Of a stretch of DNA of 64,000 nucleotides, positions 8,955 to 56,393 are shown piece after piece (within the stretch, counting starts at the first letter, position 1; each line of letters opens with the position of its first letter). The notes under the pieces are model-generated. The model was not told the origin of the DNA. It was given only the letters and a program-made list of their open reading frames with translations, and did not search any database. Source of the DNA: a virus (Duplodnaviria; Heunggongvirae; Uroviricota; Caudoviricetes); the IMG/VR virus record IMGVR_UViG_2693429668_000006; one strand, given 5' to 3'. The translations under genes were made by a program, and so were the position numbers.

Positions 8955-8980
8955 AAAAAAATGGTGGCCATAGGCCACCA
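8955..8980 (-). terminator. rho-independent terminator (minus strand)
   Basis: hairpin TGGTGGCC-ATA-GGCCACCA followed on minus strand by T7 run. Confidence 0.6.
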
Positions 8981-9047
8981 AAACGAATAGTCATTCCAGA
9001 GTTTTATTACGCATGTTAAATATACACAGATAGATAACTACCTACAA

Positions 9048-9917: not shown

Positions 9918-9994
9918 GCTAGTTTTGTTCCTTCTTAATTCTTGTGATCCATTGTGGCCCAGCGTTGCCAGGCCACATAATGCTTTGTATCGGT

Positions 9995-11137: not shown

Positions 11138-11165
11138 GTGTTTTTCCTTTTTCTTTTTTGGTGCG

Positions 11166-11187
11166 TTTAAACAAGTTGTTATCTTAT
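11166..11187 (-). promoter_or_regulatory. class-B palindromic motif TTTAAACAAGTTGTTATCTTAT (plus partial second copy 11191-11200)
   Basis: upstream of nrdB start. Confidence 0.4.
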
Positions 11188-11243
11188 GTGTTTAAACAAG
11201 GCTTACAAATCAAAGAGAAGGTGGGGATATCCCCCACCATATG

Positions 11244-23807: not shown

Positions 23808-26147
23808 TTACTCTTCTACTGACTCGGTGGGGTTGTCTTTTGCTCTTCGGTCGTCGATTGCCTGCAAAGCCGCAATGATTTCAGCCAGTGGCTTCTCCCG
23901 ATACATCTCGACGATCTGCGATTTGGTGTATTTCTTGTCACCAATTTCAACTCGCCCGCTGGCGTTCTTTGGCAGGTATCCTTCTTCCAGCATGTACTCG
24001 ACGAGCGATTCGATAACGTCGAGGCCACGAGTAGGATCGAAGTAGAATTTCCAGGTGCATTTGCCATACGGTGGTGCAACTTTGTTTTTGATGCATTCTG
24101 CGCCTACGTCCTGGCCGATCTTCTCTTTACCATCCTTCATCACCGATGCACCAAGACGGATACGTACAGAAGCGTAGAACTTCGGTGAATCTCCACCTGG
24201 CGACGTAGTAGGGTCGCCAAACATTACACCGATTTTTGTGCGAACCTGATTCAAGAAGATGATGCAGGCGTTGTATTTGCGTGCCCACAAAGCCAGAGTA
24301 GGGAAGTTCGCACTCGTCGCACGAGCCAGTGCCGTATTGTCGTTCATGTTTAGCTGATCTTTGTCTTTGGCTGTGCCTTCAGCCATCTTTTCGAACTTCT
24401 CGGCTTTGGAGTTCGGAACCATAGACGCAAGAGAGTCAGCCACGATACAGATAGGTGCTGATTCGGGGATAAGCTCTTCATCACGAACCAATTTAAGTAT
24501 TGTGCCGATCAACTCTACAGAGTCTTCGAAGGTATCTGGCTGCTTGTATACCCACTGACCGTCATCCTCATCTGCGTTCAGGCCATTGGCTACAGCCAGG
24601 CCAACGTCAAAACTGTTTTCATGATCGAGGAATACCGCCAGACCATCTTGTTTTTGAGCGGAGATCATCGCTGCTGTTGCAAGGAATGTGTTGTGGCTGA
24701 TAATCCCGTTAGACCAGAAAGAGTGTGTTTCCGGCATCGCTACGTCGAACGTTGGTGCTTCACCTTCCTCAATAGCCACGACTTCGTCGTAGAACAAGTT
24801 AGAGCCAATTACCGCTGCCAGTTGTGCAAACAGATGCTCGTTAAAACGATTCTTTCTGCCAATGAAGGAGACATAGATTTCTCGCAGTTTGTCTATTCCG
24901 ACACGATCGCCGCGGCCAATAACGTGGTCTACCAGAGCGTAGTCTTCACGGGTGGTCTTGGTGAGCGACTCGTAGAGTGATTTCACTAAGCCGCTGATGT
25001 GCGGAACATAGCCTGAGTAAGTGCGGTCAAAACCAATGTCCCGTTTGGTTGCCACTGATAAACGTGCCGGAGATTCGAAACCAATCGTTGACAGAAAAAG
25101 GTCGTAATTAGAGCCACTGAATGACAGCCGGTAATATGTATTTTCATAACCCGCGACGTGTTTTTCAGAGATAGTTGACGTAATCCCCAGATTCAGGAGC
25201 ATGAGGCGAATTTGCTGTAGCAGCAGCCCACTCGCGCTCACAACCTCAATGCAGCGACCATCATTGACGTGGCATTCCAGCTCAAAGTAGCCGCGAAGGA
25301 ATGCAATTTGAGCCTCGCTATTGGCGCGACGCACACTCAACGGAACCTGCTTGCCAGCAGCTTTCTCATACTCCAGACCATATTCTTTAAAAAGCAGCGA
25401 ACGCACCTCTTTGCTAAACAGCACATGGTCTTCCGAGCCGTTATGTTTTCTCGTAACTGGCATCTTGTCTGATACCAGCGAAATGAGGCGGTAGTACTCA
25501 TCCTTGATGAAAGGATCTGTGTTAGAAAAATTCACTGAATTTTCAGAGGCCACGTATCCGTCAGCAATTAAATAGCCCATCAGTTTTGCGATATTGGCAT
25601 CCAGGTGCTGATCGCCGAATTGATGTGTGCCAACCATTGAAGGAATCGTGTCGCCTACACTGATTTTTTCAGCATGTCGCCAGACGACATTACCTAAGTC
25701 GTCAACCACACGGATTGGGTGACGGAACGTAGCCTCGATATAACCGCCTGATGCCAGCTTAATACGCTTGAATTTGCGACGGTTGTTCCATGTCAGGTGT
25801 GAGGTCTTCTCTATCACGCCATTTTCATTGATGAGTCCAACGTTATGCTCTACATCGCGAGTAGTGCATGTCGCTTTGTACCCTTCAATCTCAAACAACT
25901 CTTTCACTGTTACCATTCCACGCTCCGTCAGCAGCATGGTGTCTGCGGTAACACATTTCCCCGCGCTTGGTGGCCCGAATACTTCTACGATACGACCACA
26001 TGGGAAACCGCCATCGTAACGACCGGAAATAGCTTTGTTTAACGGAGGAAAGCCTGTGTCAATCCAATGAGTTACTTTCTGAATTTCGTCGTTGCTACCG
26101 ATTTTCTTTTTCAGAGCAAGTGCCAGTGCGGATTTTCCTTTTGCCAT
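23808..26147 (-). CDS. recA: RecA-like recombinase precursor interrupted by an intein
   Basis: exteins (64 + 293 aa) carry RecA motifs GRIVEVFGPPSAGK|TF, FLDHENSFD, IIFLNQVR; insertion inside Walker A. Confidence 0.8.
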   Translation of the reverse strand: MAKGKSALALALKKKIGSNDEIQKVTHWIDTGFPPLNKAISGRYDGGFPCGRIVEVFGPPSAGKCVTADTMLLTERGMVTVKELFEIEGYKATCTTRDVEHNVGLINENGVIEKTSHLTWNNRRKFKRIKLASGGYIEATFRHPIRVVDDLGNVVWRHAEKISVGDTIPSMVGTHQFGDQHLDANIAKLMGYLIADGYVASENSVNFSNTDPFIKDEYYRLISLVSDKMPVTRKHNGSEDHVLFSKEVRSLLFKEYGLEYEKAAGKQVPLSVRRANSEAQIAFLRGYFELECHVNDGRCIEVVSASGLLLQQIRLMLLNLGITSTISEKHVAGYENTYYRLSFSGSNYDLFLSTIGFESPARLSVATKRDIGFDRTYSGYVPHISGLVKSLYESLTKTTREDYALVDHVIGRGDRVGIDKLREIYVSFIGRKNRFNEHLFAQLAAVIGSNLFYDEVVAIEEGEAPTFDVAMPETHSFWSNGIISHNTFLATAAMISAQKQDGLAVFLDHENSFDVGLAVANGLNADEDDGQWVYKQPDTFEDSVELIGTILKLVRDEELIPESAPICIVADSLASMVPNSKAEKFEKMAEGTAKDKDQLNMNDNTALARATSANFPTLALWARKYNACIIFLNQVRTKIGVMFGDPTTSPGGDSPKFYASVRIRLGASVMKDGKEKIGQDVGAECIKNKVAPPYGKCTWKFYFDPTRGLDVIESLVEYMLEEGYLPKNASGRVEIGDKKYTKSQIVEMYREKPLAEIIAALQAIDDRRAKDNPTESVEE
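24690..25955 (-). mobile_element. intein (422 aa) with LAGLIDADG homing-endonuclease domain
   Basis: starts Cys (CVTADTML...), ends ...SHN followed by Thr; LAGLIDADG-type motifs LMGYLIADGYV and AFLRGYFELE. Confidence 0.8.
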
Positions 26148-30102: not shown

Positions 30103-30431
30103 TGATGCCCGCCAATTGGCGGGCATCTGTTCTCTGTAAAGGTGTCTGGCATCGTCTGGTTCGTTAACGTTTACTAAACCAATGGTGACAAAAATTAGTT
30201 ATCTTTGAAAAATAAAGGTTGCATGAAAAGAAGGGGTATGCGTTAATAGCATCGTTGGTTTGCAAGACAGACCTTATGTAAGCAGTTTTAGTAAAGCAGT
30301 CTCAGTTCAGTGTTATCTTCTGATTTCCCTTCTTCGTGAGTCTCCTCCTTAAGTGCCTAAGTAAGTCCCAATCTATACAGATCAAATTCTCGCCGCACTA
30401 TGTGGCTCACAAAATTAAGAAGGTAATATCT

Positions 30432-30647
30432 ATGTCTAATAAAATGACTGGTTTAGTAAAATGGTTTAACTCTGATAAAGGCTTTGGCTTTATTTCTCCT
30501 GCTGATGGCAGTAAAGATGTTTTTGTACATTTTTCGGCAATTCAGAGTAATAATTTCCGCACTTTGGAAGAAGGCCAGCAGGTCGAATTCTCTATCGAGA
30601 ATGGGGCTAAAGGCCCAGCAGCAGCAAATGTCGTTGCTCTAAGCTGA
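30432..30647 (+). CDS. cold-shock protein (CspA family, 71 aa)
   Basis: RNP1/RNP2 motifs KGFGFI and VFVHF; GLVKWFN start; ~190-nt leader upstream. Confidence 0.85.
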
Positions 30648-30925
30648 TTCAACGCTGATGATCCTCATTTCTACAATAACGAAGACGGTGTAAGCCTGAG
30701 TGGATAGATTTGTAGGATTGTACAAGTTGAATAAATTAGCATGGTAAGGCCATGCTAATTAAATCGACACAACGGCCAGTTTATTCCATAAAAGTGAATT
30801 GCCCATTGTGGCGAAATGCGGGGTTGCCGCATGAATAGTCAAAGGCAGAAGCTAACTGCCGGCATGGCAAAACAAAGTGCGTAAGAGGAGTGACTTCCTC
30901 AACAAGCGCCATAATTCTTTATAAA

Positions 30926-30950
30926 CCCGCCAACAGGCGGGTTTTCTTTA
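30926..30950 (+). terminator. rho-independent terminator
   Basis: hairpin CCCGCC-AACA-GGCGGG followed by TTTTCTTT; between convergent csp and dnaE. Confidence 0.6.
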
Positions 30951-33900
30951 TTACTTATTTATTGTCTCCGCGATATCAGCCAGAATGGCCTCCAGTCGCT
31001 CTCCTTCTTCCGGTCGGAAGTACAGGATATTCGGGTTAAATCCGTAGAAGACGGTTGCATCAAGCTCTGGGAAGTACTCCTTACGACCAATCAGATCTGA
31101 TGGTTTACTCTTATTGTTAAATAGTGCGGTTGAACGACTACCACACGTCAAAATGTAGGTTGGTCGTACAAGATTAATTTCTTCCCGCATAAAGTCTGTG
31201 AACTGGCCTATCTCGTCTTTGGTATAGTCTTTCTCTTTGTCCTTAACCTTCTTACAAACACCCGTGACATAAAGATCGCCCATGCGCAGATCTCCAACTG
31301 TCAGTAGTTTTGCCTTAAAGTCGTCGTATCCGTTCTCCATGAAGTAGCCGGTACGAGCGTCATTGCCGTTCGCATTGTCCAGAATGATCATGATTTTGGG
31401 TTTAATACCAATAGTCGGGCGTATCAACTCCTCACCCAAGCCCATTTCAGCCGCCATACGTGTCATGAGTACGTTGATTTCGGCAGAACGCTTAGGATTC
31501 ATTTCGAACGGACGTGATGCTTTAACAGCGTCAATGATGAGATTGCCCATCAGCTCAGCCTGGTCGCGCAGTCGTTCAGGATCAGTTGCTGGCAGACTGC
31601 CTGGCTCAATTGACGCAAAAGCCCCTACTTTATGAAGCGACTCGCGTACACGACTGTTACATGCACGCTTCTCGACCGCTTCATCGAATTGTGCCACTGA
31701 CTCGAATTTGCCACCAACTTTCTCACGCGCACGCATAATTGCCTGACAACCATTTTCAGAACAGCCTTTCACAGCAGAGAATGGCGCATACAGTGCCTGA
31801 CTGCCGTCTTCGAGTGTGCGGATCTCAATTCGGTTAGATGACACATTAACGTCTGGTGGCAATACGCGAATGCCATAGGTCAGCGCATCCTTCACCAGCC
31901 CCTGATGCTTATCCTCGCCCAGAATGGTGAGCGCAGCTGCGAAGAACTCAGCAGGGTAGTGCGTCTTTAGCCACATAGACTGATAACTGATTAAAGAATA
32001 AGAAACGGAGTGTGATTTATTGAACTGATAGGCTCCGTTTTTCTCAAATGCGGTCCAGATCTCCTTCGCTTTCATCTCTGATAGCCCTGGATGTGACGCT
32101 GTAACGCGTACTGCGTTTATAGGTAGTTTTGCGCCGTGCTCAAGTGCCTCTTCGACAGTTTTCAGAGTTCCGTCTTCGCATTTAAAATGTTCCGCACGGT
32201 GAATGCGCTGTGTAGTGCCATCTTCCAGCTCAACGTCTATCCAGCCAGCTTGAGCCTGAACGATGAACTTCTCGCCCATGCTCTTCATTTTTTCCATGTT
32301 CTTCTTACCGATTGCGGAACGCACAGCGTCAGCTTCAGCCATTGTGAAGCCGGCAAGCAATCGAGTCGCGTTCATCGTCTGTTCCTGATAGAGAATCACG
32401 CCATTTGTTTCCGCGGTAAGTTCATCAAGAACGGGGTGTAATGATTCCGGCGTCATAAAGCCTTTGGCGACAGAAACATAGTCATCCAACATGCCTGATT
32501 GAATTGGCCCCGGCCGGAAGAGCGCAGTTGTAGCGACGACCGTTTTAAAGCTCATTGGCTCAATTCCACCACCTAAATCTTTAAGCAGCTTGCGCATTGG
32601 GCCTGATTCAAGCTGGAAAACACCTTGAGTGTACCCAGCAGCAAAACCATCCAGCACCTTGCGATCTTCAAGAGAAATGGCATCAAGATTGATATCTTCA
32701 CCTGTGTTCTCTTTTATGTAGCGTTTTGCACTATCGAGCAAATCGAGAGTTGCCAGGCCAAGCACGTCCAGCTTAATTAGGCCCATAGCCTCGCAGTAAC
32801 GCTTGTCAAATGCGATACAACGCGCGTCACCACGGCGCTCAACCGGTGTACGTTCTGTCAGAGGAACACCTGCTACGATCATCCCTGCCGCATGTCTACC
32901 AAAGCCACGCATAAGGCTTTGTAACTTGCAGGCTGCATTGAATGCATCAGGATATTTTGTTGCGTATTTGTCGAGACTTGCCAGTTGTTCGCGCAGTTCT
33001 TCCAATGGAAGGCTATCATCCTCAGCGTTCTTCAGTTCTTTTGATACCGCCATATCTGCGGACTCCACACCATAAATACGAGCGGTGTCACGTAGTGCAG
33101 AGGCTGCGCCCAGGTAGGTGAAGTTCGGAATGCCTGCAACGTAATCTTCGCCGTAGCGTTCATTCAGATACTCGATCACCTCATGGCGACGTGCCTGGCT
33201 GAAGTCCAAATCCGCATCTGGCAAGTCGAGACGCTCAGGGTTGATGAAACGTTCAAACAGAAGACCGTGACGGATAGGGTCGACGTTGGTTATGCCTATG
33301 CACCATGCCACCAAAGAGCCAGCGGAGGAACCACGACCAGGCCCGACAGGAATGCCAGTTTCACGGCTGTGATTCATCAGATCGCGTACCATCAGGAAGT
33401 AACCACAAAATCCCAGGCGAGTAAGCGTGTCCATTTCGTACTTAAGTCGCTCAACATAAACCCTGTTCTCAGAAGCCGGTGGTGTGTATCCAAACTCTTT
33501 TGTGGTAAGACGTTTACGCAGCCCTGCAACAGCCAGTTTCATCAGCGTTGCAGGTTCGTCGTCTGCCATCTTGGGCAGTGCTGGTGGCAATTCATGCCAG
33601 CGCCATGTACAGGCTTCGATAATGGAGTCCTGCGTTGTTGAGGCCATTGCAGCTGTTACCGGCACATCCATGCGAACGGAGAAGGCTTTAAGCGCCTCAA
33701 GGAGATGGCGGCGACCATTGACGGCGTTATCTCGCTGGTGGGGTATACGCAGACGATGCGGCTGGTCGATTTTTATGTTGTTCGTAACCATGTGCGCAAT
33801 GTCTTTAATGTCTGCATCGTCGATCGATTCGTAATAAGCGGGATAGAACGCTACTGGCTCTATTTTCAGTGCGCTGGCTACTTTCATCGCTCGGACGTTA

Positions 33901-34469
33901 ATCTGGTCGTAGAATGGGGTAGGGTGCGGATAAACCACGCTATAGAAGTTGTCTTTCCCGCCCGCTGTAATCAGTGAGCTTATGATTTTTGCAAAATCGT
34001 TGCGTTGGAACACGCTACCGATGTCGGAAGTGAGCAGGATGATGTTGCCTTTGGCATATGTAGAAACCAACTGTTCGAGCGAGAGACGCGGTACAAAGTA
34101 GAACTGTTCTCGTGTGTTGGCCACCGTCATTAGTTCGCAGATGTCGCGATATCCTTGCTCATTTTTAATTAGAGCGGTAAACGAGTAGTTACGTCCCCGC
34201 TCTAATGATTCCATACATCTCATAGATTCTTTAGCAAGTTTAGCCCGGTGCTCGTATGTGGGATCATCAACGATATTTAGTTTCACACCACAAATAACCG
34301 CCATGTCGTCACCAGCGGCACGTTGTAGTGGAATAACACTCGCAATATTCATGCTATCTGCTGAAATTACAGCGGTGTAGCCAGCTTCTCTGGCAATCTT
34401 CACCGCGTTTTCTGCTTTTAGAGCCGACTCCCCAAGTGAGAAGTCAGTTCGAACCATCAGTGCTTTCAT
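30951..34469 (-). CDS. dnaE: DNA polymerase III alpha subunit (DnaE-type, PHP domain N-terminus)
   Basis: 1172 aa; Pol III alpha core (GPGRGSSAGSLVAWCIGITNVDP), degenerate PHP N-terminus; ATG at 34467-34469. Confidence 0.8.
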   Translation of the reverse strand: MKALMVRTDFSLGESALKAENAVKIAREAGYTAVISADSMNIASVIPLQRAAGDDMAVICGVKLNIVDDPTYEHRAKLAKESMRCMESLERGRNYSFTALIKNEQGYRDICELMTVANTREQFYFVPRLSLEQLVSTYAKGNIILLTSDIGSVFQRNDFAKIISSLITAGGKDNFYSVVYPHPTPFYDQINVRAMKVASALKIEPVAFYPAYYESIDDADIKDIAHMVTNNIKIDQPHRLRIPHQRDNAVNGRRHLLEALKAFSVRMDVPVTAAMASTTQDSIIEACTWRWHELPPALPKMADDEPATLMKLAVAGLRKRLTTKEFGYTPPASENRVYVERLKYEMDTLTRLGFCGYFLMVRDLMNHSRETGIPVGPGRGSSAGSLVAWCIGITNVDPIRHGLLFERFINPERLDLPDADLDFSQARRHEVIEYLNERYGEDYVAGIPNFTYLGAASALRDTARIYGVESADMAVSKELKNAEDDSLPLEELREQLASLDKYATKYPDAFNAACKLQSLMRGFGRHAAGMIVAGVPLTERTPVERRGDARCIAFDKRYCEAMGLIKLDVLGLATLDLLDSAKRYIKENTGEDINLDAISLEDRKVLDGFAAGYTQGVFQLESGPMRKLLKDLGGGIEPMSFKTVVATTALFRPGPIQSGMLDDYVSVAKGFMTPESLHPVLDELTAETNGVILYQEQTMNATRLLAGFTMAEADAVRSAIGKKNMEKMKSMGEKFIVQAQAGWIDVELEDGTTQRIHRAEHFKCEDGTLKTVEEALEHGAKLPINAVRVTASHPGLSEMKAKEIWTAFEKNGAYQFNKSHSVSYSLISYQSMWLKTHYPAEFFAAALTILGEDKHQGLVKDALTYGIRVLPPDVNVSSNRIEIRTLEDGSQALYAPFSAVKGCSENGCQAIMRAREKVGGKFESVAQFDEAVEKRACNSRVRESLHKVGAFASIEPGSLPATDPERLRDQAELMGNLIIDAVKASRPFEMNPKRSAEINVLMTRMAAEMGLGEELIRPTIGIKPKIMIILDNANGNDARTGYFMENGYDDFKAKLLTVGDLRMGDLYVTGVCKKVKDKEKDYTKDEIGQFTDFMREEINLVRPTYILTCGSRSTALFNNKSKPSDLIGRKEYFPELDATVFYGFNPNILYFRPEEGERLEAILADIAETINK

Positions 34470-34653
34470 GTGTTTTTACCTTTATGGTTTTTTTGATTTT
34501 GTCATTGGGGAAGCCTACGAACTTCCCATACATCGAAATCGCAACTTCTTTTGCTGATTGGTGACAATCGGGCTTGTCTGGACATACCAGACAAGCCTTA
34601 CCAGTTTCAGAAGCAGCGATAAGAGAGCCGAAACATCCTTTACGCACGATCAA
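34444..34653 (-). CDS. small Cys-rich hypothetical protein (69 aa)
   Basis: ORF track; CLVCPDKPDC cluster; overlaps dnaE start by 26 nt. Confidence 0.3.
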   Translation of the reverse strand: MIVRKGCFGSLIAASETGKACLVCPDKPDCHQSAKEVAISMYGKFVGFPNDKIKKTIKVKTHESTDGSN

Positions 34654-35885
34654 CCAAATATTTTTTGAACAACTTCACGAGCCGCTTGTGCAGAAGCTGA
34701 AGGGAGTTTGTTAATGAAAGAACGCTCAATACCTGTCACAAAGTCGCCTCGCATCATTCCAATCTTGGCCGACAACAAAAGTTCACGAGGGCCAATTGGC
34801 TGACTGATAAGGTGTTCTTCGTATCCATCGCGAACGATACCGGCAAACTTAACCATCTTTTCTGCGTATTCATCCACGATACCGGCATTTATCAACATGT
34901 TGATCTCTGCCTCTTTGCTCATGTATTTCACATTCGAAACGATGCCAAAACGCGAAAAGTTCGCGGCGTTCTGGATGTTTGTACCCTGGTACAAGCCGGT
35001 TTCATCACCAGATCCGTTCGTGTTGCCAGTGCCAATGAAAGCAAACCGTTCATGCGGAGTAATGCGACGCCATTCTGGAGTCGCCTCTTTGATGACCAAC
35101 GCTTCACCTTCCAGCACTGGCTGATACACGCCAAGAATCTGTGGAAACGCAAAGTCGTATTCATCCGCGAGGTAAACCCAGCCATGCTTCATTGCGAGCG
35201 CAAGCAAGCCAGGCTCGAAATACGTAGAGCCATCACGCGCCAGAATTTGCCCCGTAACATGTGCCTCTTCCATTGATGCTGTATGTTGGGCACGGATCAA
35301 CGGACGATTGAGCAAAGCACATAGTTGTGTAGGCAATGACGATTTGCCTGTTCCTGCATGACCCCACAAATAGCCAGGTATGCCAAGTTCAAGCATCATG
35401 AAAATGTCTTTGATCAGTTCGAAGTCGCCATATACGTAGCCCTTCTTCACTTCTGGAACGAACTCTGGAAACGGCGTATTGACGTTGACGCTAACCATGA
35501 GCGGCGTCCCACGTTTTGTTCCGAGTTCTTTCACCGTTACATTTAGCAGTTCGTGAGCTGCGACCAGATCTGTCTTGTACTCAACTGTGCCTGTGTAGCC
35601 TGGGCTACTGGTCACGCCAGATGATTTGGCCATTTCGCTTTTTTGCTCGGCACGTTTAGCTTGAATTGCATCAAGTGCCTTTTTCGATAGCGTTGGTTCA
35701 TCTGGAAACTGCGTTGTGTACATTTTCAGTACGGTGTCAGGATCGGCATCTTTTACTGACTCAGGAATGCCCTCGCAATTACCATTGGCTACATGGGACT
35801 TAAAATAGTGAAATGATTTGCCGCACCACTTGCAAACAAGGTAATCAGAAGGATTTTTATCATTTTGCAGTGCAGTAGTAGTCAT
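34650..35885 (-). CDS. AAA+ ATPase (MoxR/CobS-like) with N-terminal zinc-finger-like segment
   Basis: Walker A GHAGTGKSS, Walker B-like VYLADEYD; N-terminal CKWCG...C. Confidence 0.65.
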   Translation of the reverse strand: MTTTALQNDKNPSDYLVCKWCGKSFHYFKSHVANGNCEGIPESVKDADPDTVLKMYTTQFPDEPTLSKKALDAIQAKRAEQKSEMAKSSGVTSSPGYTGTVEYKTDLVAAHELLNVTVKELGTKRGTPLMVSVNVNTPFPEFVPEVKKGYVYGDFELIKDIFMMLELGIPGYLWGHAGTGKSSLPTQLCALLNRPLIRAQHTASMEEAHVTGQILARDGSTYFEPGLLALAMKHGWVYLADEYDFAFPQILGVYQPVLEGEALVIKEATPEWRRITPHERFAFIGTGNTNGSGDETGLYQGTNIQNAANFSRFGIVSNVKYMSKEAEINMLINAGIVDEYAEKMVKFAGIVRDGYEEHLISQPIGPRELLLSAKIGMMRGDFVTGIERSFINKLPSASAQAAREVVQKIFG

Positions 35886-35942
35886 GCGCTTTTCCTTTGT
35901 TCTCTAATGAGCGTTCAAGTTCTTATATAAATATACCATTAA

Positions 35943-35964
35943 CTATGGTAAGTAGTTACTTATC
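35943..35964 (-). promoter_or_regulatory. class-A palindromic motif CTATGGTAAGTAGTTACTTATC
   Basis: upstream of AAA+ gene. Confidence 0.45.
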
Positions 35965-35980
35965 ATTAAGGCTGTTTTAA

Positions 35981-38089
35981 TTACTTCAAAATGATACGAG
36001 ATAGTTCAGTAACTACAGATGAACCAAGACTATCAACACTAGTTACCAGGGCATGATTTGCGTAAAATCTCTCCGGTGCATCAGTCATGATGCCAATTGC
36101 CATCAAATCAATGTCAGTCTGCGTTTCAATTTGCTTCGTAACCGAACGCAAATGGGCGTCAAAACCTCTCCCAACAGCCCACGGCGCGCCATCACTCAGA
36201 ACAAGCATGATCTTCCTGTCCTCCAAGCGACCGGAAAATAACGATGCAAGGCTGGCTATGCTTTCACCATCCACGTTATTAAGAAGTGGGAATGTGTAGC
36301 CTACGCACCCCATACGTGAGCGAACTTCGCGAGAATTTGCTTTTTCATTCCAATTTTTGATGATAGGTAGCATTAAAGATTCAAAGCGAGAGAACTCATA
36401 TTTGATAGCCTTAAGTTCTCCTGCTGCCATATGACTGCCAAATGTAGTGAAGCCGGTGATAATGTTGGGAACATTTATTCGATCAAGTGCATCGGCGATG
36501 GTATATGCACTTGCAAGAGCTAGTTTTATCGTTTCGCCACTCATTGAACCCGATAAATCAATCACTTGTTGAACACAGGCGTTAACGGCTTTAGATTCTT
36601 CTTTTTTACGAAACACGCGATCATCATTCATTGTTAATCTGTAGATACTTGAACCATGAATGCGCCCCCGACGCTGGCCAGGTATAAACTGAACTCTGTT
36701 TCTGCTTGCTATTGCACGTTCCAGGTCTTTTGCCAGCGTCGACGAAACACCTGACGAAAGGTGCTTTTCAATATATTTGTCGAAGAGCTGGTTGCCTTCA
36801 GGAACGATGCGATAACGGCTGATTGGATATCCACCTAAATCAATATCGGAGAATGTTTTAATAAGCCGTTTGATATGGGCTTCTGCCTGATCAATCGAGC
36901 CGATGAAGTCGTATGAGCGATTGTATGGCCTGTATTCGCTTTTCGAGCTTTCTGTTAACTCGCTTTTAATCGTTTCGGATAGCGCATCTTCTGTCATGCC
37001 TCCGACTTCATCTTCCATGCTATCCAACTCCTCTAAAGCCTCTTCCAGACTCATTTTTGACGGAGTTGGAATGTCTGAAGAGCCGTCTTCTGTCGATTTT
37101 CTTTTTTCGTGGTCAGTGGTAAATGATTCTGACGCCGCGTTATCAGAAGCACCAGAATCTGATACCTCTTTATCATTTTCTGTATCATCGAATATTGTTT
37201 CTGATGATTCAGAATTATCTGAATCATCACTGTCGTTATTATCATGTTTGTACTTACTGTGTGATTCTGATTTGATAGATTTGTGATTATCTAACGCTGA
37301 GGGTGTCTCATGATCTTCGTTGTCTTCATTGTTTTCTCCAGAGGCATCCGTCTGGTCAGCGTCTGAAGGATCGGAAGTTTTTCCCGGAGCTGACTCCTTA
37401 CCTTTGCTTTCACTTTCAGTGTCTTTGAGGATCTTAGCTATGGTCGCAGCCACCTTTACACAATCCTCGGTGCAAGACATGTTACGCACGGCCACATCGA
37501 TACCATGTTCTTTTAATAATGAAATTGGTTTCTCAATGACAGGCCAATATTCATCCATGAAATCTACGAACGGTGCTTGGCCATCCCAGGCTCTTACAAC
37601 CGGACAGAGAAAGAAGTTTAGAAAAAGCGCGCGCTGATCTTTGCCACAATAAGCAATAGCCTCTGAAGCCTTTGTTTTAAAGACTTTTTCGATTATAAGG
37701 CGCTGAGTTGCCATCAGATTACGTCTTGTTCCGTTAAAGACCTGACCCATTTTTCGCTCGATGAACACGTCTTCTAAGGCATTCCATAGCGACCAGGAAG
37801 GAACGCGTCCTTTTTCTCTCATTTTGTTGGACACACGAATATCGGTAAACAAAATGTGAGCAACCTCATGATCGAGAAATCCGCGCACAGCATTCATCAA
37901 TGCCGGTGTTGCGTTATCCGGGATTGATGGGATGTTTACGAGAATTGGCTCTCCATCATCGTTATAGCGTACATAAGCGTCGTCCCCTCGTTCTGCAACA
38001 GGGATGTTTTTACCTGAAAGGAGAGCGACTACTCGTTTTACACTGTCACGGAAGTCCTGAACCTCTTTGATGGAACGTTTTTTAGACAT
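35981..38089 (-). CDS. von Willebrand factor A (VWA) domain protein (CobT-like partner of AAA+ ATPase)
   Basis: C-terminal MIDAS motif DLSGSMSG; long acidic Ser/Asp-rich linker. Confidence 0.6.
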   Translation of the reverse strand: MSKKRSIKEVQDFRDSVKRVVALLSGKNIPVAERGDDAYVRYNDDGEPILVNIPSIPDNATPALMNAVRGFLDHEVAHILFTDIRVSNKMREKGRVPSWSLWNALEDVFIERKMGQVFNGTRRNLMATQRLIIEKVFKTKASEAIAYCGKDQRALFLNFFLCPVVRAWDGQAPFVDFMDEYWPVIEKPISLLKEHGIDVAVRNMSCTEDCVKVAATIAKILKDTESESKGKESAPGKTSDPSDADQTDASGENNEDNEDHETPSALDNHKSIKSESHSKYKHDNNDSDDSDNSESSETIFDDTENDKEVSDSGASDNAASESFTTDHEKRKSTEDGSSDIPTPSKMSLEEALEELDSMEDEVGGMTEDALSETIKSELTESSKSEYRPYNRSYDFIGSIDQAEAHIKRLIKTFSDIDLGGYPISRYRIVPEGNQLFDKYIEKHLSSGVSSTLAKDLERAIASRNRVQFIPGQRRGRIHGSSIYRLTMNDDRVFRKKEESKAVNACVQQVIDLSGSMSGETIKLALASAYTIADALDRINVPNIITGFTTFGSHMAAGELKAIKYEFSRFESLMLPIIKNWNEKANSREVRSRMGCVGYTFPLLNNVDGESIASLASLFSGRLEDRKIMLVLSDGAPWAVGRGFDAHLRSVTKQIETQTDIDLMAIGIMTDAPERFYANHALVTSVDSLGSSVVTELSRIILK

Positions 38090-38124: not shown

Positions 38125-38187
38125 AGTGTGTTTAATGTAGCACTGCGCGAACAGGGAACTAAGCCATTCGCGCAGGGAGAAGAGGGG

Positions 38188-38400: not shown

Positions 38401-38651
38401 TCAATCAATCCATTCTAACTTATACTATGGTAAGGAATACTACTAAAATCTATATCAATACTGAATACATTCATATCATATGCAAGTTGATTTTCTTACC
38501 TGTTTTGGGCTAATTTTTCTCCGTGCAATGGCCTTTAACCGGTCTTTTAAGTGCCTATCGAAAAAAATGATAATAGCTTTACAACCCTAACCTTTGATGT
38601 AATATCGGTAAGCACTTACCAGAGAGAATTGAACGCGCAAAGGTTGTAACC

Positions 38652-39038
38652 ATGTCTGATAACAAGATTGAATTTATAGAAAGTCGCTACGCTGCTTTTA
38701 TCGCAGGGTTGATTGAATCCTCACCTATGAGCCAGGCCCAGATAGCCAAAACAATTGGGTATAAAAACGCCAACAACCTTTCTTTAATTAAAAGCGGCAA
38801 AATTCCTTTGCCTATCGATAAGGTTCGTCCGCTGGCGCTGGCACTGGGCATTGAGCCAAGTCGTCTTATGATGATGGTGCTGGAAGAACGCCAACCCGAA
38901 CTCGCAGCATTTTTATACAAAGAAGGCACTGCTCCTCTTAACGAGGACGAAAAACAGGTTCTTGCTGCATATAACGAGCGATTCGGTAAAGAGAAAGGCG
39001 CATCACAAAAGGTTGTTGAGGCCATAAAGTCTCTATGA
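38652..39038 (+). CDS. HTH DNA-binding regulator (XRE-like)
   Basis: helix-turn-helix segment SQAQIAKTIGYKNANNLSLIKSGK. Confidence 0.5.
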   Translation: MSDNKIEFIESRYAAFIAGLIESSPMSQAQIAKTIGYKNANNLSLIKSGKIPLPIDKVRPLALALGIEPSRLMMMVLEERQPELAAFLYKEGTAPLNEDEKQVLAAYNERFGKEKGASQKVVEAIKSL

Positions 39039-40136
39039 AAAATTTACACGAATAAGCTCTGTTGATAGACGATCTCCCTTAAATTTGTGGTCAATTTCGT
39101 CTAAATCCGGTTGCTCTACGATTGATGCGATGTACGTCGAGAAACTTTCTAAGGCGTCTCGCATCTCGTCCATATAATCGTGCCGGTCGTAGACCCGATC
39201 TATCCCCTCAAGACTGTGGTTCATGATTTTACGTGATACCTCCTGGCTTATGCCTAATGCTGGGAAGTAACTACGCGCAGTACGGCGCAAATCTCGGGGT
39301 GTAAATGGCTCAAGCTCCATCAGTTCTGGTCGTTCCAGAATACGACGTAATGCCTGGGCTATTGCCACTTTAGACATAGGAAGGTCTTTCCCGATTTTTT
39401 TATTCGAAGGCACGAGCCACTGGCTGTCTTTACCATATTCGAACAACTCTTCAATACAAGTGCGCATTAATGAGCTTAAAGGCAGAGAATGCTCACGGGC
39501 AGATTTGTTCCTCTTGCCTTGATTCCAAACCCCACGCTTAAGATTGAACTCACTTTTTTTAGCCCGCAGTACTTCGTCAGGTCGTCTTGCGGATACAAGA
39601 CATAGCCTGGCCGCCCATTTTGTACCAGCGCACACATTGAAGTAGTCCCATATATTCCAGAACACCCATACCTCTGCGTCGGTCAGCTTCCGCTCGCGAG
39701 GTGTGGGCTTTGCGCCACCGGCAACTTTGTTAAGTGACATATCGTTTAACGGTGACACGTCTATCATCCCCTGGAAGGCGCACCAGCTAAGGAACTGCTT
39801 CATCAGAGAGAAAACGCGGCGGCCCATAACAATTTTGCCATCCAGTATTAGTGGGTTGACCAGTTGGTTCACCATGAACCTATTAATGTCACTTACTTTT
39901 ACATCGGCAATGTGCGGCAAAACATGTATCAAAATACAATGAACAGCGATCTCTGGCCGACGTCTGGTTATCAGCAGAGATAAGCGAGTGAATAACATGA
40001 ATGCGTCCGAGAATCTCATGTCATTGCTGACCTGGGAGATCATAACGGCCTGCATTTGAGATGCTCTTTCGAGATACTCTATCGCCTCTTTTGAGGTGTT
40101 CTCCGCAGCGCGTGCTCTGTCAAAGCTATTTTTCAT
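39033..40136 (-). CDS. tyrosine recombinase / integrase family protein
   Basis: C-terminal catalytic region TPRDLRRTARSY (box II) and NHSLEGIDRVYDRH (His...Tyr); ARRPDEV box I-like. Confidence 0.65.
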   Translation of the reverse strand: MKNSFDRARAAENTSKEAIEYLERASQMQAVMISQVSNDMRFSDAFMLFTRLSLLITRRRPEIAVHCILIHVLPHIADVKVSDINRFMVNQLVNPLILDGKIVMGRRVFSLMKQFLSWCAFQGMIDVSPLNDMSLNKVAGGAKPTPRERKLTDAEVWVFWNIWDYFNVCAGTKWAARLCLVSARRPDEVLRAKKSEFNLKRGVWNQGKRNKSAREHSLPLSSLMRTCIEELFEYGKDSQWLVPSNKKIGKDLPMSKVAIAQALRRILERPELMELEPFTPRDLRRTARSYFPALGISQEVSRKIMNHSLEGIDRVYDRHDYMDEMRDALESFSTYIASIVEQPDLDEIDHKFKGDRLSTELIRVNFS

Positions 40137-40346
40137 ATGACAATCACCGAGTTACGCCGATGCACTGTATAAGTAAACAGTATATTAGGCATAGATTCTT
40201 ATAGGATCAAGAGTAAAAGTAACTCATTTTCAGCAATGATTCCATACATAGTAGGTATGGAATCATTTAGCCGTTGTTTTTTGAATTTTAAGGGAACCAA
40301 GCGTGAGTTTGGTGGGAACAAAAACGGCTCCTGTGAGCCGTTAAAA

Positions 40347-40592
40347 TTAGAGAGTGGTGACGTATGCAGCCAGTTCTGTGTATCCGCCAATCGGTTGGCC
40401 ATCGATCAGTACCTGGGGGATAGTCTCTACCGGTTTGCCAACAATTTCGCTAAGTTTTTCCTTATCGATACCGGCAGTGGTGATGTCGATGTACTCATAA
40501 TCACCATAGCCGTGTCCCTTTAGTTGTTTCGCCAGCTCGACCGCACGTTTGCAATATGAGCAGTTATCTCGTCCGTAGATAACGATAGTCAT
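40347..40592 (-). CDS. glutaredoxin-like protein (NrdC/NrdH-like)
   Basis: IYGRDNCSYC redox motif, thioredoxin-fold length, ...DGQPIGGY. Confidence 0.7.
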   Translation of the reverse strand: MTIVIYGRDNCSYCKRAVELAKQLKGHGYGDYEYIDITTAGIDKEKLSEIVGKPVETIPQVLIDGQPIGGYTELAAYVTTL

Positions 40593-40648
40593 GTTTACCT
40601 CATAATAATTATGTGTTACTTAACCAGAAAATAAATATTACTATAAAA

Positions 40649-40670
40649 GATAGGTAAGTAAAAACCTATT
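40649..40670 (-). promoter_or_regulatory. class-A palindromic motif GATAGGTAAGTAAAAACCTATT
   Basis: upstream of glutaredoxin gene. Confidence 0.45.
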
Positions 40671-40731
40671 TAATGTCTGCAATACATCGTAAACTTGCCT
40701 GTTAATCACAACTTAATTTAGTTAATATTTA

Positions 40732-42060
40732 ATGCAACTAACAATGGTAAGTACGAGAGCATACATGCCTGTTTTTATTTCTGTTGCAATTCTAATGTTT
40801 TCCATAATAATTTTGTTTTTAGGTTTACTACTTGAGCCATTTCAAGATTGGAAGGTTACAGACCAAATTGCTGTATTGAGTAGTTTTATAACGACAGCGG
40901 CTTTTTGTGCAACAGCGTGGAACGCCTATGAAGCAAGAAAAAGTGCAAAGGCAGCACTGGAGGCCGTTAGGATAACTACCGATTCATTGATTGAGATGAG
41001 AAAAAATTCTTTCAAAGAATGGTTTGACACTTTATTAAATCAGCATGATGAGTTGTACAATAATGTCATACCAATCATTGAACAGACAAAAAAACAATTT
41101 AATAAAAATGAAATGCATTCGTTTTTTTATCCATTGGTAAGAAAGCATGAGGTTATTCAGTACATAAAACATATTACCAATATATTAGTCTATGTAGATA
41201 ACCGATTTTACATAGATGGAAATTGTTTTGATGAAAAAATGGAATATATTATTCAATTGAGTGGAAAAATACCACCGCAAATGAAGTTGGTTATTGCAGT
41301 TTTTGGATTGGACATCGATTCTCGTGAACCGCTGGATTCAAAAAAACTGTATGCTTTATTAAATAAATATGATTTTTTCAAAGATGAAATATTCTTTGAT
41401 GATGCTTATTCAAGCATGCCTGAAGTAGAGCTATTTATAAAGGATAGATTTGATAAAATATTTAAAACCAAGATGTTAAAATACTTTTGGAACGTGATTA
41501 AGGAATATTATTCTCAAGTTGAAGTCAAAGAAATCTGGGTGGTTCGTCGTCCGCAAGTTGCTTCATCGGTATTAATGAACTACCAAACACCATTATCTGG
41601 TTTAATTGATGATTATTTTAAAAATTTGCCAAATGAGGTAAAGAGCATTTTTGATGAAGCACTAAAAAAAGCTAATGATAGTGTTACGTCTATTGATGAC
41701 TATATTCATCGTTTGATCGGTTGCAGAGTCGCGTCGATTTCAGAGCATGTCCATTTCGAAAGTGAAATACTGAGTAGTGAAAAGGATGTGAAGGATATGA
41801 TTAAAAATTACATAGAGCAAAGAAAAACTGGAAAAAATGCGGTAAATCTTGGGCAGTTATATTTCTCGAGTGAGTCAGATGTAATTACAGGTGATCAGTT
41901 GAGTGATGCGATCGATGAATATGAGAAAAAGTTGGCACTTATGGCAATAAACGATAATGATGATAGTGATAACCTATTGTGCCATATCTATATTAAATCA
42001 TGTGAGATAGTTGATGAATATAAGCGTGAAACATTAAAATTGGGCGAGTACGCACAATAG
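40732..42060 (+). CDS. AT-rich membrane-anchored hypothetical protein (442 aa)
   Basis: N-terminal TM helix (and possible second), large K/E/D-rich soluble domain, markedly AT-rich codon usage, opposite strand to backbone. Confidence 0.55.
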   Translation: MQLTMVSTRAYMPVFISVAILMFSIIILFLGLLLEPFQDWKVTDQIAVLSSFITTAAFCATAWNAYEARKSAKAALEAVRITTDSLIEMRKNSFKEWFDTLLNQHDELYNNVIPIIEQTKKQFNKNEMHSFFYPLVRKHEVIQYIKHITNILVYVDNRFYIDGNCFDEKMEYIIQLSGKIPPQMKLVIAVFGLDIDSREPLDSKKLYALLNKYDFFKDEIFFDDAYSSMPEVELFIKDRFDKIFKTKMLKYFWNVIKEYYSQVEVKEIWVVRRPQVASSVLMNYQTPLSGLIDDYFKNLPNEVKSIFDEALKKANDSVTSIDDYIHRLIGCRVASISEHVHFESEILSSEKDVKDMIKNYIEQRKTGKNAVNLGQLYFSSESDVITGDQLSDAIDEYEKKLALMAINDNDDSDNLLCHIYIKSCEIVDEYKRETLKLGEYAQ

Positions 42061-48793: not shown

Positions 48794-50047
48794 ATGAAAC
48801 TCATAAAACCTTCATCGTTGCTGGCATTAGCTTTGCTTTTCGGCCCTGGATACGTTAACGCAGATAATAAACAAACGCTGATCGACGCCGCCACCGCAGG
48901 AGATACCACAGCACAAAGTGCGTTAGGGACAAATTATTTGGATGGGGCTAATGGCTTTGATGAGGATTTAGTAGAGGCCAAGAAGTGGATCGATCTCGCC
49001 GCAGAAAAGGGAGATAAAGTAGCATATTATGCGCTTGGGGTTATGTACACAATTGGGAAGGGAGTAGATAAAGATCTAAATAAGGCCGTTGAGTACTACA
49101 AACTAGCAGGAAATGCTCGCAACGGCAGTGCTTACCATAATCTTGCCGTTATATACGAACGAGGTTGGACTGGAAAGGAGGACCCAGAAGCTGCTTTAAA
49201 ATATCACAAACTAGCAGTAGAAGCTGGTGATATACCTTCGCTTGCCTATATGGGATATTTATATCAATACGGTAAGGGAGTTCCGAAAGATTACAAGAAA
49301 GCATTTAAATCTTATAAAAAGGCTGCGGATAGTGGAAATGCCGCAGGAATGTATGGGCTAGGCTCTATGTACGACGATGGTGTTGCTGTTAAGCGCAACA
49401 ATAAAGAGGCAATTAAGTGGTACTTGAAAGCAGCTGAATTAGGAAATAATAACGCCATGAGCGCGCTTGGATACAAGTTGATGCATGGAGAAGGTATAAA
49501 AAAAGACTATTCGAAGGCCAGAAGTCTTTTAGAACAAGCAATCAGCTTAGGAAATGATTATGCCATGAACCACCTTGGTTACATGTATCTTAAGGGATTG
49601 GGCGTCAAACAGGATTATCGGAAAGCATCAGAGCTTTACCAAGCTGCTTGCGATAAAGATGACGAAACGGGCTGCGAAAACGTTGCTGCAATGAAAGCAA
49701 AAGGTACGTTCCGTTCGCCTTCAAAACAGCAAAATGCCAAATCTGACACTCAGCGACTTATTGCTAAATCCATTGATAAAGGCGTTAACGCAACATTTAC
49801 CTGGCAGGGTGATGATGCCGTCTTCACCGCTAATGATGGCAAAGTTGACTGCACCTTCTTGAAGGATTTTTCAGAGAAAGGAGGCAATCTGGCTACCTCG
49901 TTTGTTTGCACCGATAACGTTCAAATCATCCTGAAGCAATTCAGAGATACCAAGAATGCCTACCTCGCGGTAATGACTGACAACTTCAACACAGAAGTTA
50001 AATCATTTTCGGTCAATGTTTACGTGACTAATACTGGTTCAAACTAA
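48794..50047 (+). CDS. secreted Sel1-repeat (TPR-like) protein
   Basis: signal peptide; tandem ~36-aa Sel1-like repeats (A..LG.MY..G.GV.KD...A..WY.KAA). Confidence 0.65.
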   Translation: MKLIKPSSLLALALLFGPGYVNADNKQTLIDAATAGDTTAQSALGTNYLDGANGFDEDLVEAKKWIDLAAEKGDKVAYYALGVMYTIGKGVDKDLNKAVEYYKLAGNARNGSAYHNLAVIYERGWTGKEDPEAALKYHKLAVEAGDIPSLAYMGYLYQYGKGVPKDYKKAFKSYKKAADSGNAAGMYGLGSMYDDGVAVKRNNKEAIKWYLKAAELGNNNAMSALGYKLMHGEGIKKDYSKARSLLEQAISLGNDYAMNHLGYMYLKGLGVKQDYRKASELYQAACDKDDETGCENVAAMKAKGTFRSPSKQQNAKSDTQRLIAKSIDKGVNATFTWQGDDAVFTANDGKVDCTFLKDFSEKGGNLATSFVCTDNVQIILKQFRDTKNAYLAVMTDNFNTEVKSFSVNVYVTNTGSN

Positions 50048-55314: not shown

Positions 55315-55365
55315 TGGTGTCTATCCTTCAACTCATATATTGGGCGTAACAAACGCCCAATATAA

Positions 55366-55725
55366 TCACCCTTTCTTCATCAACTCGCGTTTAATTTCAT
55401 CGGTACGCATCGTGACATCGGCAGCTGTGATCGCCTCGTTAAGTTTCACGATGTCCTCGATTTCCTGCGGTGTCTTCTCCGCAAGATGGAAAATAGCAGC
55501 ACGAATCACGTCAGAACGAGTGAACTTCTCGAAGCGAGGGATGAACTTCATCATCTCCAGCAGTTCGAAGTATTCGTCCTCCAGTGACATTGTGCGGCTT
55601 TTAATTTTCTCTTTGCCACGAGTCGGGCGTCCCTGTGGTCTGACTGGTTGGCGCAAAGGAGTTGTGTTCTTAGCCGGTGCATCAGGCTCTTTGCGCTTTG
55701 CTAGGTCACCCATTTTCATGGACAT
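55366..55725 (-). CDS. small partition partner protein (ParG/ParB-like candidate, 119 aa)
   Basis: translationally coupled downstream of parA; basic N-terminus. Confidence 0.4.
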   Translation of the reverse strand: MSMKMGDLAKRKEPDAPAKNTTPLRQPVRPQGRPTRGKEKIKSRTMSLEDEYFELLEMMKFIPRFEKFTRSDVIRAAIFHLAEKTPQEIEDIVKLNEAITAADVTMRTDEIKRELMKKG

Positions 55726-56393
55726 TATTCTTCTTCCTCCAGACTCAACAGATAATCTACAAATTCTTCAAACTCGGCTTCCGCCTTTTTGTCGCGCTCG
55801 CTACCGGTCATTTCAAAGATAGAACGACCAGACTCTTCCGCATCATCATAGACGTTGCGGTTATATAGATTGACTGGCGCAGACTCGATGCCAAACGTCT
55901 CAACAATCTCTTTAGCCGCCAGAATGCGAGACACTTGTGATGGCAAAGCCGGGCACTGGTTCATGACCGCGCGGACCTTCACTTTATCGTTTACATTACG
56001 AACATTGTCGATAATAGGATCGATGTCACGCAGAGATTTCAAATCACGACGCTTAGGACGAAGCGGGATAATGATAACGTCGGCCATCAGCATCGCTTGT
56101 CGCTGAATTTCGGAGTCAAAGCCACCAGCATCTACCACTACAAACTCAGCTCTACCCTGAAGCGATTTTAGGTGCTTAATGATGTCATCCTGAACGTATG
56201 CAAAAGGAATCAGCTCAAGGTCTTCGTTCTGTCGACGGTCTTCACACCAGCTTGTTGTCGTGCGCTGAATATCTATATCAGTGATATAAACCTTCTTCTT
56301 CTTTTTGACTTTCAGGCAAACGGCAATTTGCTGGGCAACGGTGGATTTGCCAGGCCCGCCCTTTGTGCCGCCAACCACAAAGATCTTGGTCAT
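55725..56393 (-). CDS. parA: ParA-family partition ATPase
   Basis: deviant Walker A VVGGTKGGPGKST; 222 aa small-ParA size. Confidence 0.8.
   Translation of the reverse strand: MTKIFVVGGTKGGPGKSTVAQQIAVCLKVKKKKKVYITDIDIQRTTTSWCEDRRQNEDLELIPFAYVQDDIIKHLKSLQGRAEFVVVDAGGFDSEIQRQAMLMADVIIIPLRPKRRDLKSLRDIDPIIDNVRNVNDKVKVRAVMNQCPALPSQVSRILAAKEIVETFGIESAPVNLYNRNVYDDAEESGRSIFEMTGSERDKKAEAEFEEFVDYLLSLEEEE

Follow-up and report, generated by a model that had tools for sequence, protein, structure and literature searches.

A CobS/CobT-like motor–adaptor pair with a predicted zinc finger, placed before the DNA polymerase gene in SSU5-type phage-plasmids

In the canonical CobS/CobT system, the motor is a CobS hexamer and CobT is its adaptor (10.64898/2026.07.21.739949). 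The N-terminal domain of CobT (CobT_N) has an M48C-peptidase-like fold and binds the CobS lid; it is followed by a disordered linker of ~90 residues and by a 'shaft' before the VWA domain, which enters the ring pore upon nucleotide binding. CobN (137 kDa) is gripped between the face with the MIDAS, an adhesion site that depends on a metal ion, and the CobT N-domain (10.64898/2026.07.21.739949). Here we describe a related pair of genes, encoding a CobS-like AAA+ motor and a CobT-like adaptor, in a 64,000-nucleotide (nt) stretch of viral DNA (IMG/VR record IMGVR_UViG_2693429668_000006; the whole stretch is called the window below). The window is an SSU5-family phage-plasmid of Escherichia coli. 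Its region of interest shares 100% identity with E. coli plasmid pMB5646_2, 97% with Cyrano, a phage-plasmid of E. coli LF82, and ~80% with Salmonella phage SSU5. We conclude that in this host the pair is very probably a motor–adaptor machine rather than a chelatase, and we tentatively favor the reading that the machine remodels or processes a client protein on DNA and thereby allows lytic replication of the phage to begin or continue.

That such pairs exist in phages is already known, and they have long been annotated. A 'cobST two-gene cluster' was described in tailed viruses of eight host orders and was proposed to hijack host CobN (Liu et al. 2021; PMC8651126), and a MoxR–vWA pair of jumbo phages, whose vWA member carries a metallopeptidase at its N-terminus, was proposed to act in virion assembly (Iyer et al. 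2021; PMC7824862). In work on cyanophages, cobS is taken as a vitamin B12 gene whose function is uncertain. In SSU5, pHCM2 and pMT1-type elements the pair is annotated as porphyrin or cobalamin biosynthesis proteins; surveys of phages and viromes routinely count 'cobS/cobT' as auxiliary metabolic genes for B12, and in marine cyanophages these belong to the core genes. The literature that we searched contained no experimental test of the function of the pair, and a paper on Klebsiella SSU5-like plasmids does not mention these genes. This agrees with an earlier annotation of the window by a model that saw only its letters and ORFs (the sequence-only reading), which had called the role in phage biology undefined.

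The two genes lie 95 nt apart on the same strand, among five closely packed open reading frames (ORFs) of 70, 702, 411, 67-69 and 1172 aa on the minus strand. The sequence-only reading had reported adjacent, co-oriented genes for proteins of 702 and 411 aa and an overlapping small Cys-rich ORF, together with Walker A, Walker B-like and MIDAS motifs, an N-terminal Cys cluster and an acidic linker. We found the three ORFs (the small one of 69 aa) at the coordinates it gave, and all of the motifs. Its proposal of a MoxR/CobS-like ATPase with a VWA partner also held in profile hidden Markov model searches, in which the motor matched AAA_5 (PF07728; E 2e-15) and the adaptor matched CobT (residues 9-294, E 1.8e-27) and CobT_C, the VWA domain (residues 492-701, E 5.7e-83).

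We then compared the pair with the canonical proteins, taking their structures (9ujv and 9uka) and the cobS-cobT genes of a Shinella replicon as reference. The AAA+ module of CobS, with its Walker A and B motifs and lid, is homologous to that of the window motor. CobT shares the three-part plan of the window adaptor, namely an N-domain (M48C-like in CobT), an acidic linker, and a shaft with a VWA/MIDAS domain; and in both cases the motor and adaptor genes are adjacent. However, the canonical gene order is S then T, whereas the phage order is T then S. CobS has no Ros/MucR finger, whereas the window motor has ~100 extra N-terminal residues; CobT has SMALR where the window adaptor has HEVAH. Furthermore, the canonical pair stands in a cob cluster, whereas the window pair stands in a phage replication operon. 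No ORF in the window is of CobN size; only DnaE and a tail fiber reach at least 1000 aa. Against the NCBIfam equivalog models, the motor scored 84.8 bits for CobS (TIGR01650, cut-off 558.55) and the adaptor scored 74.4 bits for CobT (TIGR01651, cut-off 759.05), the latter over the C-terminal 260 residues only; both scores are thus some 7-10-fold lower than required.

In the motor, a predicted zinc finger (residues ~14-70) is joined by a linker (70-105) to an AAA+ module (105-411) that is homologous to CobS. It matches phrog_249, 'porphyrin biosynthesis' (E 2e-106), and among PDB entries CobS (9ujv_A; E 1.8e-25, residues 141-411), with Midasin, CbbQ and NorQ next best. The sensor and arginine residues N288, R312 and R367 are invariant in the motor alignment, as are the Walker residues listed in Table 1, and a CbbQ_C lid is recorded for relatives. 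The N-terminal Cys/His cluster comprises C18, C21, H26, H31 and C37 and, assigned at the level of the family, would be a zinc finger of the Ros/MucR type. A profile built from 19 motor N-termini found Ros87 (2jsp_A) as its top PDB match (E 3.5e-5; next match 0.07). Pfam ROS_MUCR (PF05443) matches 12 of the 19, one of them above the gathering score (26.5 vs 25.4 bits), and two database homologues carry a precomputed PF05443 label. Across 44 sequences C18 is invariant and C21 and H31 are at least 90% conserved; the ligand spacing in the family, Cx2Cx9Hx4H, is that of Ros, and a conserved 'Y..(Y/F)PDAP.LS' segment follows the ligands. In the window the spacing is C18-x2-C21-x9-H31-x5-C37, an insertion in the SSU5 clade having swapped the last His for Cys37. 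CxxD and His-to-Tyr substitutions occur in two lineages; zinc-free Ros homologues with Cys-to-Asp changes are known. An AlphaFold2 (AF2) model of the finger has the secondary-structure order beta-beta-beta-alpha-alpha, as reported for Ros87. A text search returned no paper that combines MucR, zinc finger, AAA+ and phage.

The adaptor, which matches phrog_1576 with E 7e-300, begins with an N-domain (residues 1-225), followed by a disordered, acidic linker (226-380), then a helical 'shaft' (~440-490) and finally the VWA domain (491-702). Its family profile aligns with PDB CobT (9uka_G; E 3e-39) over the VWA and shaft regions but not over the N-domain, which was aligned to canonical CobT_N by pairwise BLASTP only (E 3e-4). 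In that alignment a G-x-x-D segment around D73 falls on the CobT_N residues that touch the CobS lid. The AF2 model of the N-domain (mean predicted local distance difference test score, pLDDT, 87; predicted template modeling score 0.82) presents its secondary-structure elements in the order described for CobT_N. The N-domain also carries the candidate zinc-peptidase motif HEVAH, with conserved E106, D107 and E111 downstream. The motif is invariant in two of the alignments made here. Of 146 full-length sequences representing the phage-type adaptor family, 144 have HExxH, and so do the homologues in cyanophage S-PM2 and Vibrio phage JSF27. Fold searches with the N-domain recovered no peptidase, so catalytic competence is suggested solely by conservation of the motif. 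The linker is 19% Ser, 15% Asp and 15% Glu, with a net charge of -34. At the other end of the protein, the five MIDAS positions (D511, S513, S515, T548 and D633) are invariant in the family alignment and align with the canonical CobT MIDAS; DxSGS is found in 143 of the 146 representatives.

Both genes are under purifying selection. Relative to SSU5, nonsynonymous divergence (pN) is 0.06-0.19 in the folded domains and synonymous divergence (pS) is at least 0.7 (saturated), which indicates real genes and not chance ORFs; the highest pN within the adaptor gene, 0.41, falls in the linker. Among 80 related viral contigs, a full-length cobS-like gene is present in all 80 and the small Cys4 ORF in 78. 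A search of viral contigs for related loci gave close relatives only (77-100% identity), and a homology search started from a distant N-domain gave only 8 fragments; more distant contexts came from phage and plasmid collections and contig look-ups. The expectation that the pair would be co-conserved in relatives was borne out: the two genes occur together in all 15 contexts and in every relative inspected, down to ~30% identity. The VWA adaptor is present in 1037 plasmid records, and the wider family forms 8287 clusters at 50% identity.

The pair also keeps a fixed position. The order CobT-like gene, CobS-like gene, 0-4 small genes, DnaE stands at the head of the replication module in 13 of 13 finger-bearing lineages sampled, all from phages or phage-plasmids of gamma- and alphaproteobacteria: the window, SSU5, four metagenomic or genomic contigs of ~45% identity (L003/4, L005, L006 and L095), Photobacterium, Methylobacter-type and ENA contigs (L096-L098), Acinetobacter and Aeromonas plasmids, Pseudomonas phage phiK7B1 and Rhizobium phage RHph_N2_6. 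In most of them DnaE has a C-terminal domain resembling uracil-DNA glycosylase (UDG), and DnaE is usually followed by a gp32-type single-stranded-DNA-binding protein (SSB), a 5'-3' exonuclease and RecA. A divergent integrase and helix-turn-helix (HTH) gene, as in the window, recurs in L003, L005, L008, L096 and L098. The finger-less pair of cyanophage S-PM2 lies between gp46/gp47 and gp45/gp44/gp62, and that of Vibrio phage JSF27 lies upstream of a helicase and PolA. Finger-less pairs are thus also found among replication genes, and the association spans three polymerase families.

Between motor and polymerase lies the small Cys4 ORF, with the motif GCFGS-x11-CxxC-x5-C. The sequence-only reading had suspected that this Cys-rich ORF might belong to the module, and its relatives support this: it is a truncated homologue, matching the N-terminus of 170-226 aa proteins found directly upstream of DnaE in L003, L005, L006 and L008. 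In L003, L005, L008 and L091 a sigma-70 region-2-like protein of ~210 aa is encoded between the ATPase and the Cys4 protein. By sequence comparison, the SSU5 clade appears to have lost the sigma-70-like gene and to have shortened the Cys4 protein to its N-terminal 67 residues. If the small ORF starts at TTG, the stop of the motor gene overlaps that codon; if it starts at the GTG used in SSU5, the stop lies 2 nt ahead of it. Following the SSU5 annotation, GTG 34647 is the more likely start. The small ORF in turn overlaps the dnaE ATG by 26 nt, an arrangement that predicts translational coupling to both neighbors.

DnaE, encoded by the next gene of the operon, is a candidate client or partner of the machine. 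In the window its UDG-like domain (residues ~1016-1172; TIGR00758, E 5e-7) replaces the usual C-terminal domains. The usual UDG motifs are GE(A/G)PG and HPS; inspection by eye, with no reference alignment, found DNANGND and NPN instead. The PHP domain lacks the His-x-His metal motif (MVRTDFS), and we rejected metal insertion into this domain as a main idea since the histidines of PHP motif I are absent. In L008 and L098, dnaE is split by an HNH/NUMOD4 endonuclease.

Several features bear on how the operon is controlled. The leader ORF is kept in 75 of the 80 viral loci, and in L005, L006, L008, L095, L096 and L097 an ORF of 57-78 aa is likewise found at this place upstream of the CobT-like gene. 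The 251-nt intergenic region (38401-38651) between the leader ORF and the divergent repressor-like gene presumably holds the operon promoter and operator; consensus scans for promoters and terminators performed no better on the window than on shuffled sequence. Between the leader ORF and the CobT-like gene (38143-38175) there is a 9-bp inverted repeat, CTGCGCGAA ... TTCGCGCAG, with a 15-nt loop, which might attenuate read-through. At the far end of the operon, a CspG-like cold-shock gene (30336-30647, plus strand) is convergent with the end of dnaE, and a perfect 9-bp GC-rich hairpin, AAACCCGCC-AACA-GGCGGGTTT, with T-rich tails on both strands, lies between them (30923-30944). Judged by its form, this hairpin is likely a bidirectional terminator that closes the operon.

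Published RNA-seq of LF82 (PMC9928086, S1 Table) gives normalized reads for Cyrano in a lysogenic overnight culture. The counterparts of the pair had 7.8 (CYRAN_47, CobT-like) and 6.7 (CYRAN_48, CobS-like) reads and DnaE (CYRAN_49) had 10.1, similar to the small and large terminase subunits (7.1 and 8.4), while the adjacent repressor (CYRAN_45) had 96. Low reads alongside terminase, with a high repressor, point to a repressed, lytic-cycle function. The sequence-only reading had listed plasmid maintenance among the roles to check, and silence in the plasmid state argues against it. In macrophage-associated samples, the counterpart of the leader ORF (CYRAN_46) rises from log2 4.3 to 10.8, and the Cyrano CobT-like gene only from ~3 to 5.9 (log2).

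Table 1. Positions of the operon genes, their predicted functional elements and the divergent genes upstream, numbered along the window
Feature	Position	Strand	Remarks
Integrase	39033-40136		beyond the 251-nt gap upstream of the operon, with the HTH regulator
HTH repressor-like gene	38652..39038	+	divergently transcribed; annotated 'transcriptional regulator'; 'putative repressor' in Cyrano
Leader ORF, 70 aa	38188..38400	-	phrog_2627 (unknown function), E 9e-41; divergent from the repressor-like gene
CobT-like adaptor, 702 aa	35981..38089	-	
HEVAH, candidate zinc-peptidase motif, residues 74-78 in N-domain	37856..37870	-	
Acidic Ser/Asp/Glu-rich linker, residues 226-380	36950..37414	-	length varies between relatives
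MIDAS DxSxS (DLSGS), residues 511-515	36545..36559	-	site completed by T548 and D633
CobS-like MoxR AAA+ motor, 411 aa	34650..35885	-	
Predicted Ros/MucR-type prokaryotic zinc finger, putative ligands C18, C21, H31, C37	35676..35846	-	
Walker A GHAGTGKS, residues 175-182	35340..35363	-	G175, G178, G180 and K181 invariant, including canonical CobS
Walker B DEYD, residues 241-244	35154..35165	-	invariant, including canonical CobS
Small Cys4 ORF, 67-69 aa	34444..34653	-	phrog_6337, E 2e-44; SSU5_051 in SSU5
DnaE-type DNA polymerase III alpha, 1172 aa, with C-terminal family-4 UDG-like domain	30951..34469	-	

These observations of domain architecture, motif conservation, synteny and silence in lysogeny provide the basis for a model, in which we infer the geometry of the complex, its binding to DNA, proteolysis and the link to replication. 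By analogy with the canonical system, the CobS-like protein would form an ATP-driven hexameric ring, and the CobT-like adaptor would dock on it with its N-domain on the ATPase lid and its shaft in the ring pore, so that a client protein would meet its MIDAS face and N-domain. The predicted Ros/MucR finger on the motor suggests that the ring is probably held on DNA, and retention of HExxH in the putatively M48-like N-domain suggests that the adaptor may cleave its client as well as grip it. As the first large genes of a repressor-controlled lytic operon that runs into the Cys4 protein and DnaE, the pair is, judging from operon structure and expression, produced together with the phage DnaE at lytic onset. 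There it could promote replication in one of two ways: it might assemble or activate the phage polymerase along with the Cys4 partner, or it might clear a DNA-bound obstacle. Candidate clients are the phage polymerase, polymerase partners or a DNA-bound host protein.

A more specific version of this model, which we consider unlikely, is a DNA-tethered AAA+ unfoldase, VWA adaptor and zinc protease that would run ahead of the DnaE replisome, extracting and cleaving proteins that are bound to the phage DNA or cross-linked with it, as a counterpart in bacterial viruses of the eukaryotic Cdc48–Wss1/SPRTN system. Possible targets would be host nucleoid proteins, stalled parts of the host replisome or repressors. 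If this were true, canonical CobT would be a catalytically dead descendant that was recruited for cobalt chelation.

A number of points weigh against a replication machine held on DNA. The N-terminus of the window motor itself falls below every Pfam threshold, its assignment coming through alignment with relatives, and its fourth finger ligand is Cys, not His. The AF2 model of the finger is moderately confident (pLDDT 67.5), and Foldseek returned no match to it. The finger is absent from the CobS proteins of the cyanophage and the Vibrio phage, as it is from canonical CobS. Two lineages with the synteny intact, Acinetobacter plasmids and Pseudomonas phage phiK7B1, have lost HExxH, which means that cleavage cannot be a universal requirement. 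Descent from a single replication module could in large part account for the synteny; accessory genes of nucleotide metabolism, too, are found in replication modules, and position alone is compatible with a metabolic role.

The last point leads to other functions that the pair could serve. MoxR–VWA pairs are classically metal-insertion or enzyme-activation systems (10.64898/2026.07.21.739949), and a chaperone that inserts or activates a metal cofactor in a phage metalloenzyme, in the manner of NorQ/NorD, CoxD/CoxE, CbbQ/CbbO and CobS/CobT, would have plausible clients in the window: NrdB, the di-iron/manganese small subunit of class I ribonucleotide reductase (RNR), or the SbcD-like nuclease. 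The window encodes NrdA/NrdB, ThyA and a Metallophos nuclease, and in several phage lineages the pair lies among nucleotide and replication genes. However, such a chaperone would leave both the finger of the motor and the HExxH of the adaptor unexplained, the RNR genes are ~20 kb away, and the constant neighbor is DnaE, whose PHP domain (VRTDFS) lacks His-x-His; we therefore regard it as improbable. Doubtful, too, is a host-takeover or counter-defense protease that would cleave a host nucleoid protein, defense factor or regulator early in infection and have no direct replisome role. The place of the pair at the head of the lytic operon beside the repressor, the conserved HExxH, the MIDAS as a protein-capture site and an acidic linker that could mimic DNA would all suit it, but the pair resembles no known anti-defense protein or PADLOC model, two lineages have lost HExxH, and conservation of the core across phages of E. 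coli, Acinetobacter, Rhizobium and cyanobacteria fits a phage-internal or universal client better. Membership in a defense system was rejected after a PADLOC scan, in which the ATPase and the small ORFs had no match and the VWA protein had only a 16.6-bit DrmE match of zero stretch.

A chaperone or protease for virion assembly, proposed for group 2.2 jumbo phages (PMC7824862) and shown for the pair of the Acidianus two-tailed virus, draws on the ability of AAA+/VWA chaperones to assemble large structures. We judge it very unlikely for the window, where the pair is predicted to be translationally coupled to DnaE and the motor to have a DNA-binding-type finger; all the lineages examined have the pair within the replication/recombination module and not among head or tail genes. 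The standard annotation would instead make the pair a genuine auxiliary cobaltochelatase, with phage CobS/CobT hijacking host CobN to boost B12 for nucleotide synthesis, as hypothesized in PMC8651126 and in the cyanophage literature, and homology to CobS/CobT is indeed clear. Yet E. coli needed ~30 heterologous genes, including cobN/S/T, to make B12 (PMC6249242). The RNR of the element is class I NrdA/NrdB with glutaredoxin, which is B12-independent; both proteins score far below the equivalog cut-offs; and the finger, HExxH, reversed gene order and DnaE linkage are foreign to chelatase. From what is known of enterobacterial B12 metabolism, E. coli lacks CobN and the whole corrin pathway, and other hosts of the family (Acinetobacter baumannii, Vibrio cholerae, Klebsiella, Salmonella and Yersinia) are not known to have an aerobic CobN pathway either. 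An auxiliary chelatase is thus extremely unlikely here, and for this host the usual 'B12' label is almost certainly mistaken.

This matters beyond one element, because SSU5-type phage-plasmids occur in E. coli, Salmonella Typhi (pHCM2), Yersinia pestis (pMT1), Klebsiella and Acinetobacter, where no pathway is known for cobS/cobT to serve. If the pair is replication apparatus, a large class of 'metabolic' annotations is wrong. If its role in replication is real, a conserved, druggable or engineerable step of the lytic switch, in clinically common phage-plasmids that carry resistance, becomes testable. It would also mean that clients bound to DNA are within reach of the MoxR–VWA motor–adaptor design, and would suggest a route by which a chelatase adaptor evolved from a protease.

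The operon is surrounded by a replication and recombination module encoding a DnaB-like helicase, primase, ligase, gp32-like SSB, 5'-3' exonuclease, intein-bearing RecA and SbcCD-like proteins; a Rep3-type plasmid initiator and tail genes are also nearby. The nucleotide-metabolism cluster (7774-13559, minus strand) consists of ThyA, a MazG/PRA-PH-like pyrophosphohydrolase, NrdB and NrdA with an ATP cone, and a GrxA-type glutaredoxin is encoded apart from it (40347-40592, minus strand); by its gene content, the element is predicted to supply its own B12-independent dNTP synthesis. The RecA homologue (23808-26147, minus strand) is split by a LAGLIDADG intein (RecA, LAGLIDADG_3 and Intein_splicing domains), and SSU5 has an uninterrupted 358-aa recombinase at this position. 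Within the helicase/primase/ligase block, but on the opposite strand, lies the gene for a 417-aa Sel1-repeat protein (48794-50047, plus strand; 6 repeats, E 5e-56). A 568-aa KAP-family P-loop NTPase (53608-55314, minus strand) matches the PADLOC candidate defense system PDC-S49 (E 2e-21) and sits in a compositionally foreign, low-GC island (~54000-56000, GC 0.35). A second AT-rich island (40000-42000, GC 0.35) is the site of a 442-aa ORF (40732-42060, plus strand) that has no Pfam or PADLOC match and adjoins the integrase and glutaredoxin genes. Cyrano has a different gene in this region, CYRAN_43 (184 aa, ~7000 normalized reads in lysogeny), and the region looks like a variable cargo slot.

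Among described systems, the window genes belong to the phage 'cobST' or MoxR–vWA–metallopeptidase family (PHROGs 249, 1576, 459 and 17276), a widespread two-gene cluster of tailed phages in which the VWA partner has an N-terminal HExxH domain. The SSU5-type subfamily adds a predicted finger to the motor, includes the Cys4 protein and always precedes the DnaE–UDG polymerase in the lineages sampled; we found no description of these additions in the literature searched. With a motor predicted to carry a finger, an adaptor that keeps HExxH and this fixed position, the SSU5-type form appears, from its sequence, to be a distinct MoxR–VWA variant. NorQ/NorD, CbbQ/CbbO, CoxD/CoxE, RavA/ViaA and Rea1/Midasin likewise combine an AAA_5-type hexamer with one MIDAS adaptor that acts on a protein client, and Midasin has an acidic linker before its MIDAS domain, as the window adaptor does. 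However, these systems have neither a DNA-binding finger nor HExxH, and their clients are metabolic enzymes or pre-ribosomes. The Ros/MucR proteins (PF05443; 2jsp), for their part, have in common with the motor finger the Cx2Cx9Hx4H spacing and a 'Y..W/Y.P.DYP..AP' segment. In Ros the finger is joined to an oligomerization domain, whereas here it is joined to an AAA+ motor, for which DNA binding is predicted.

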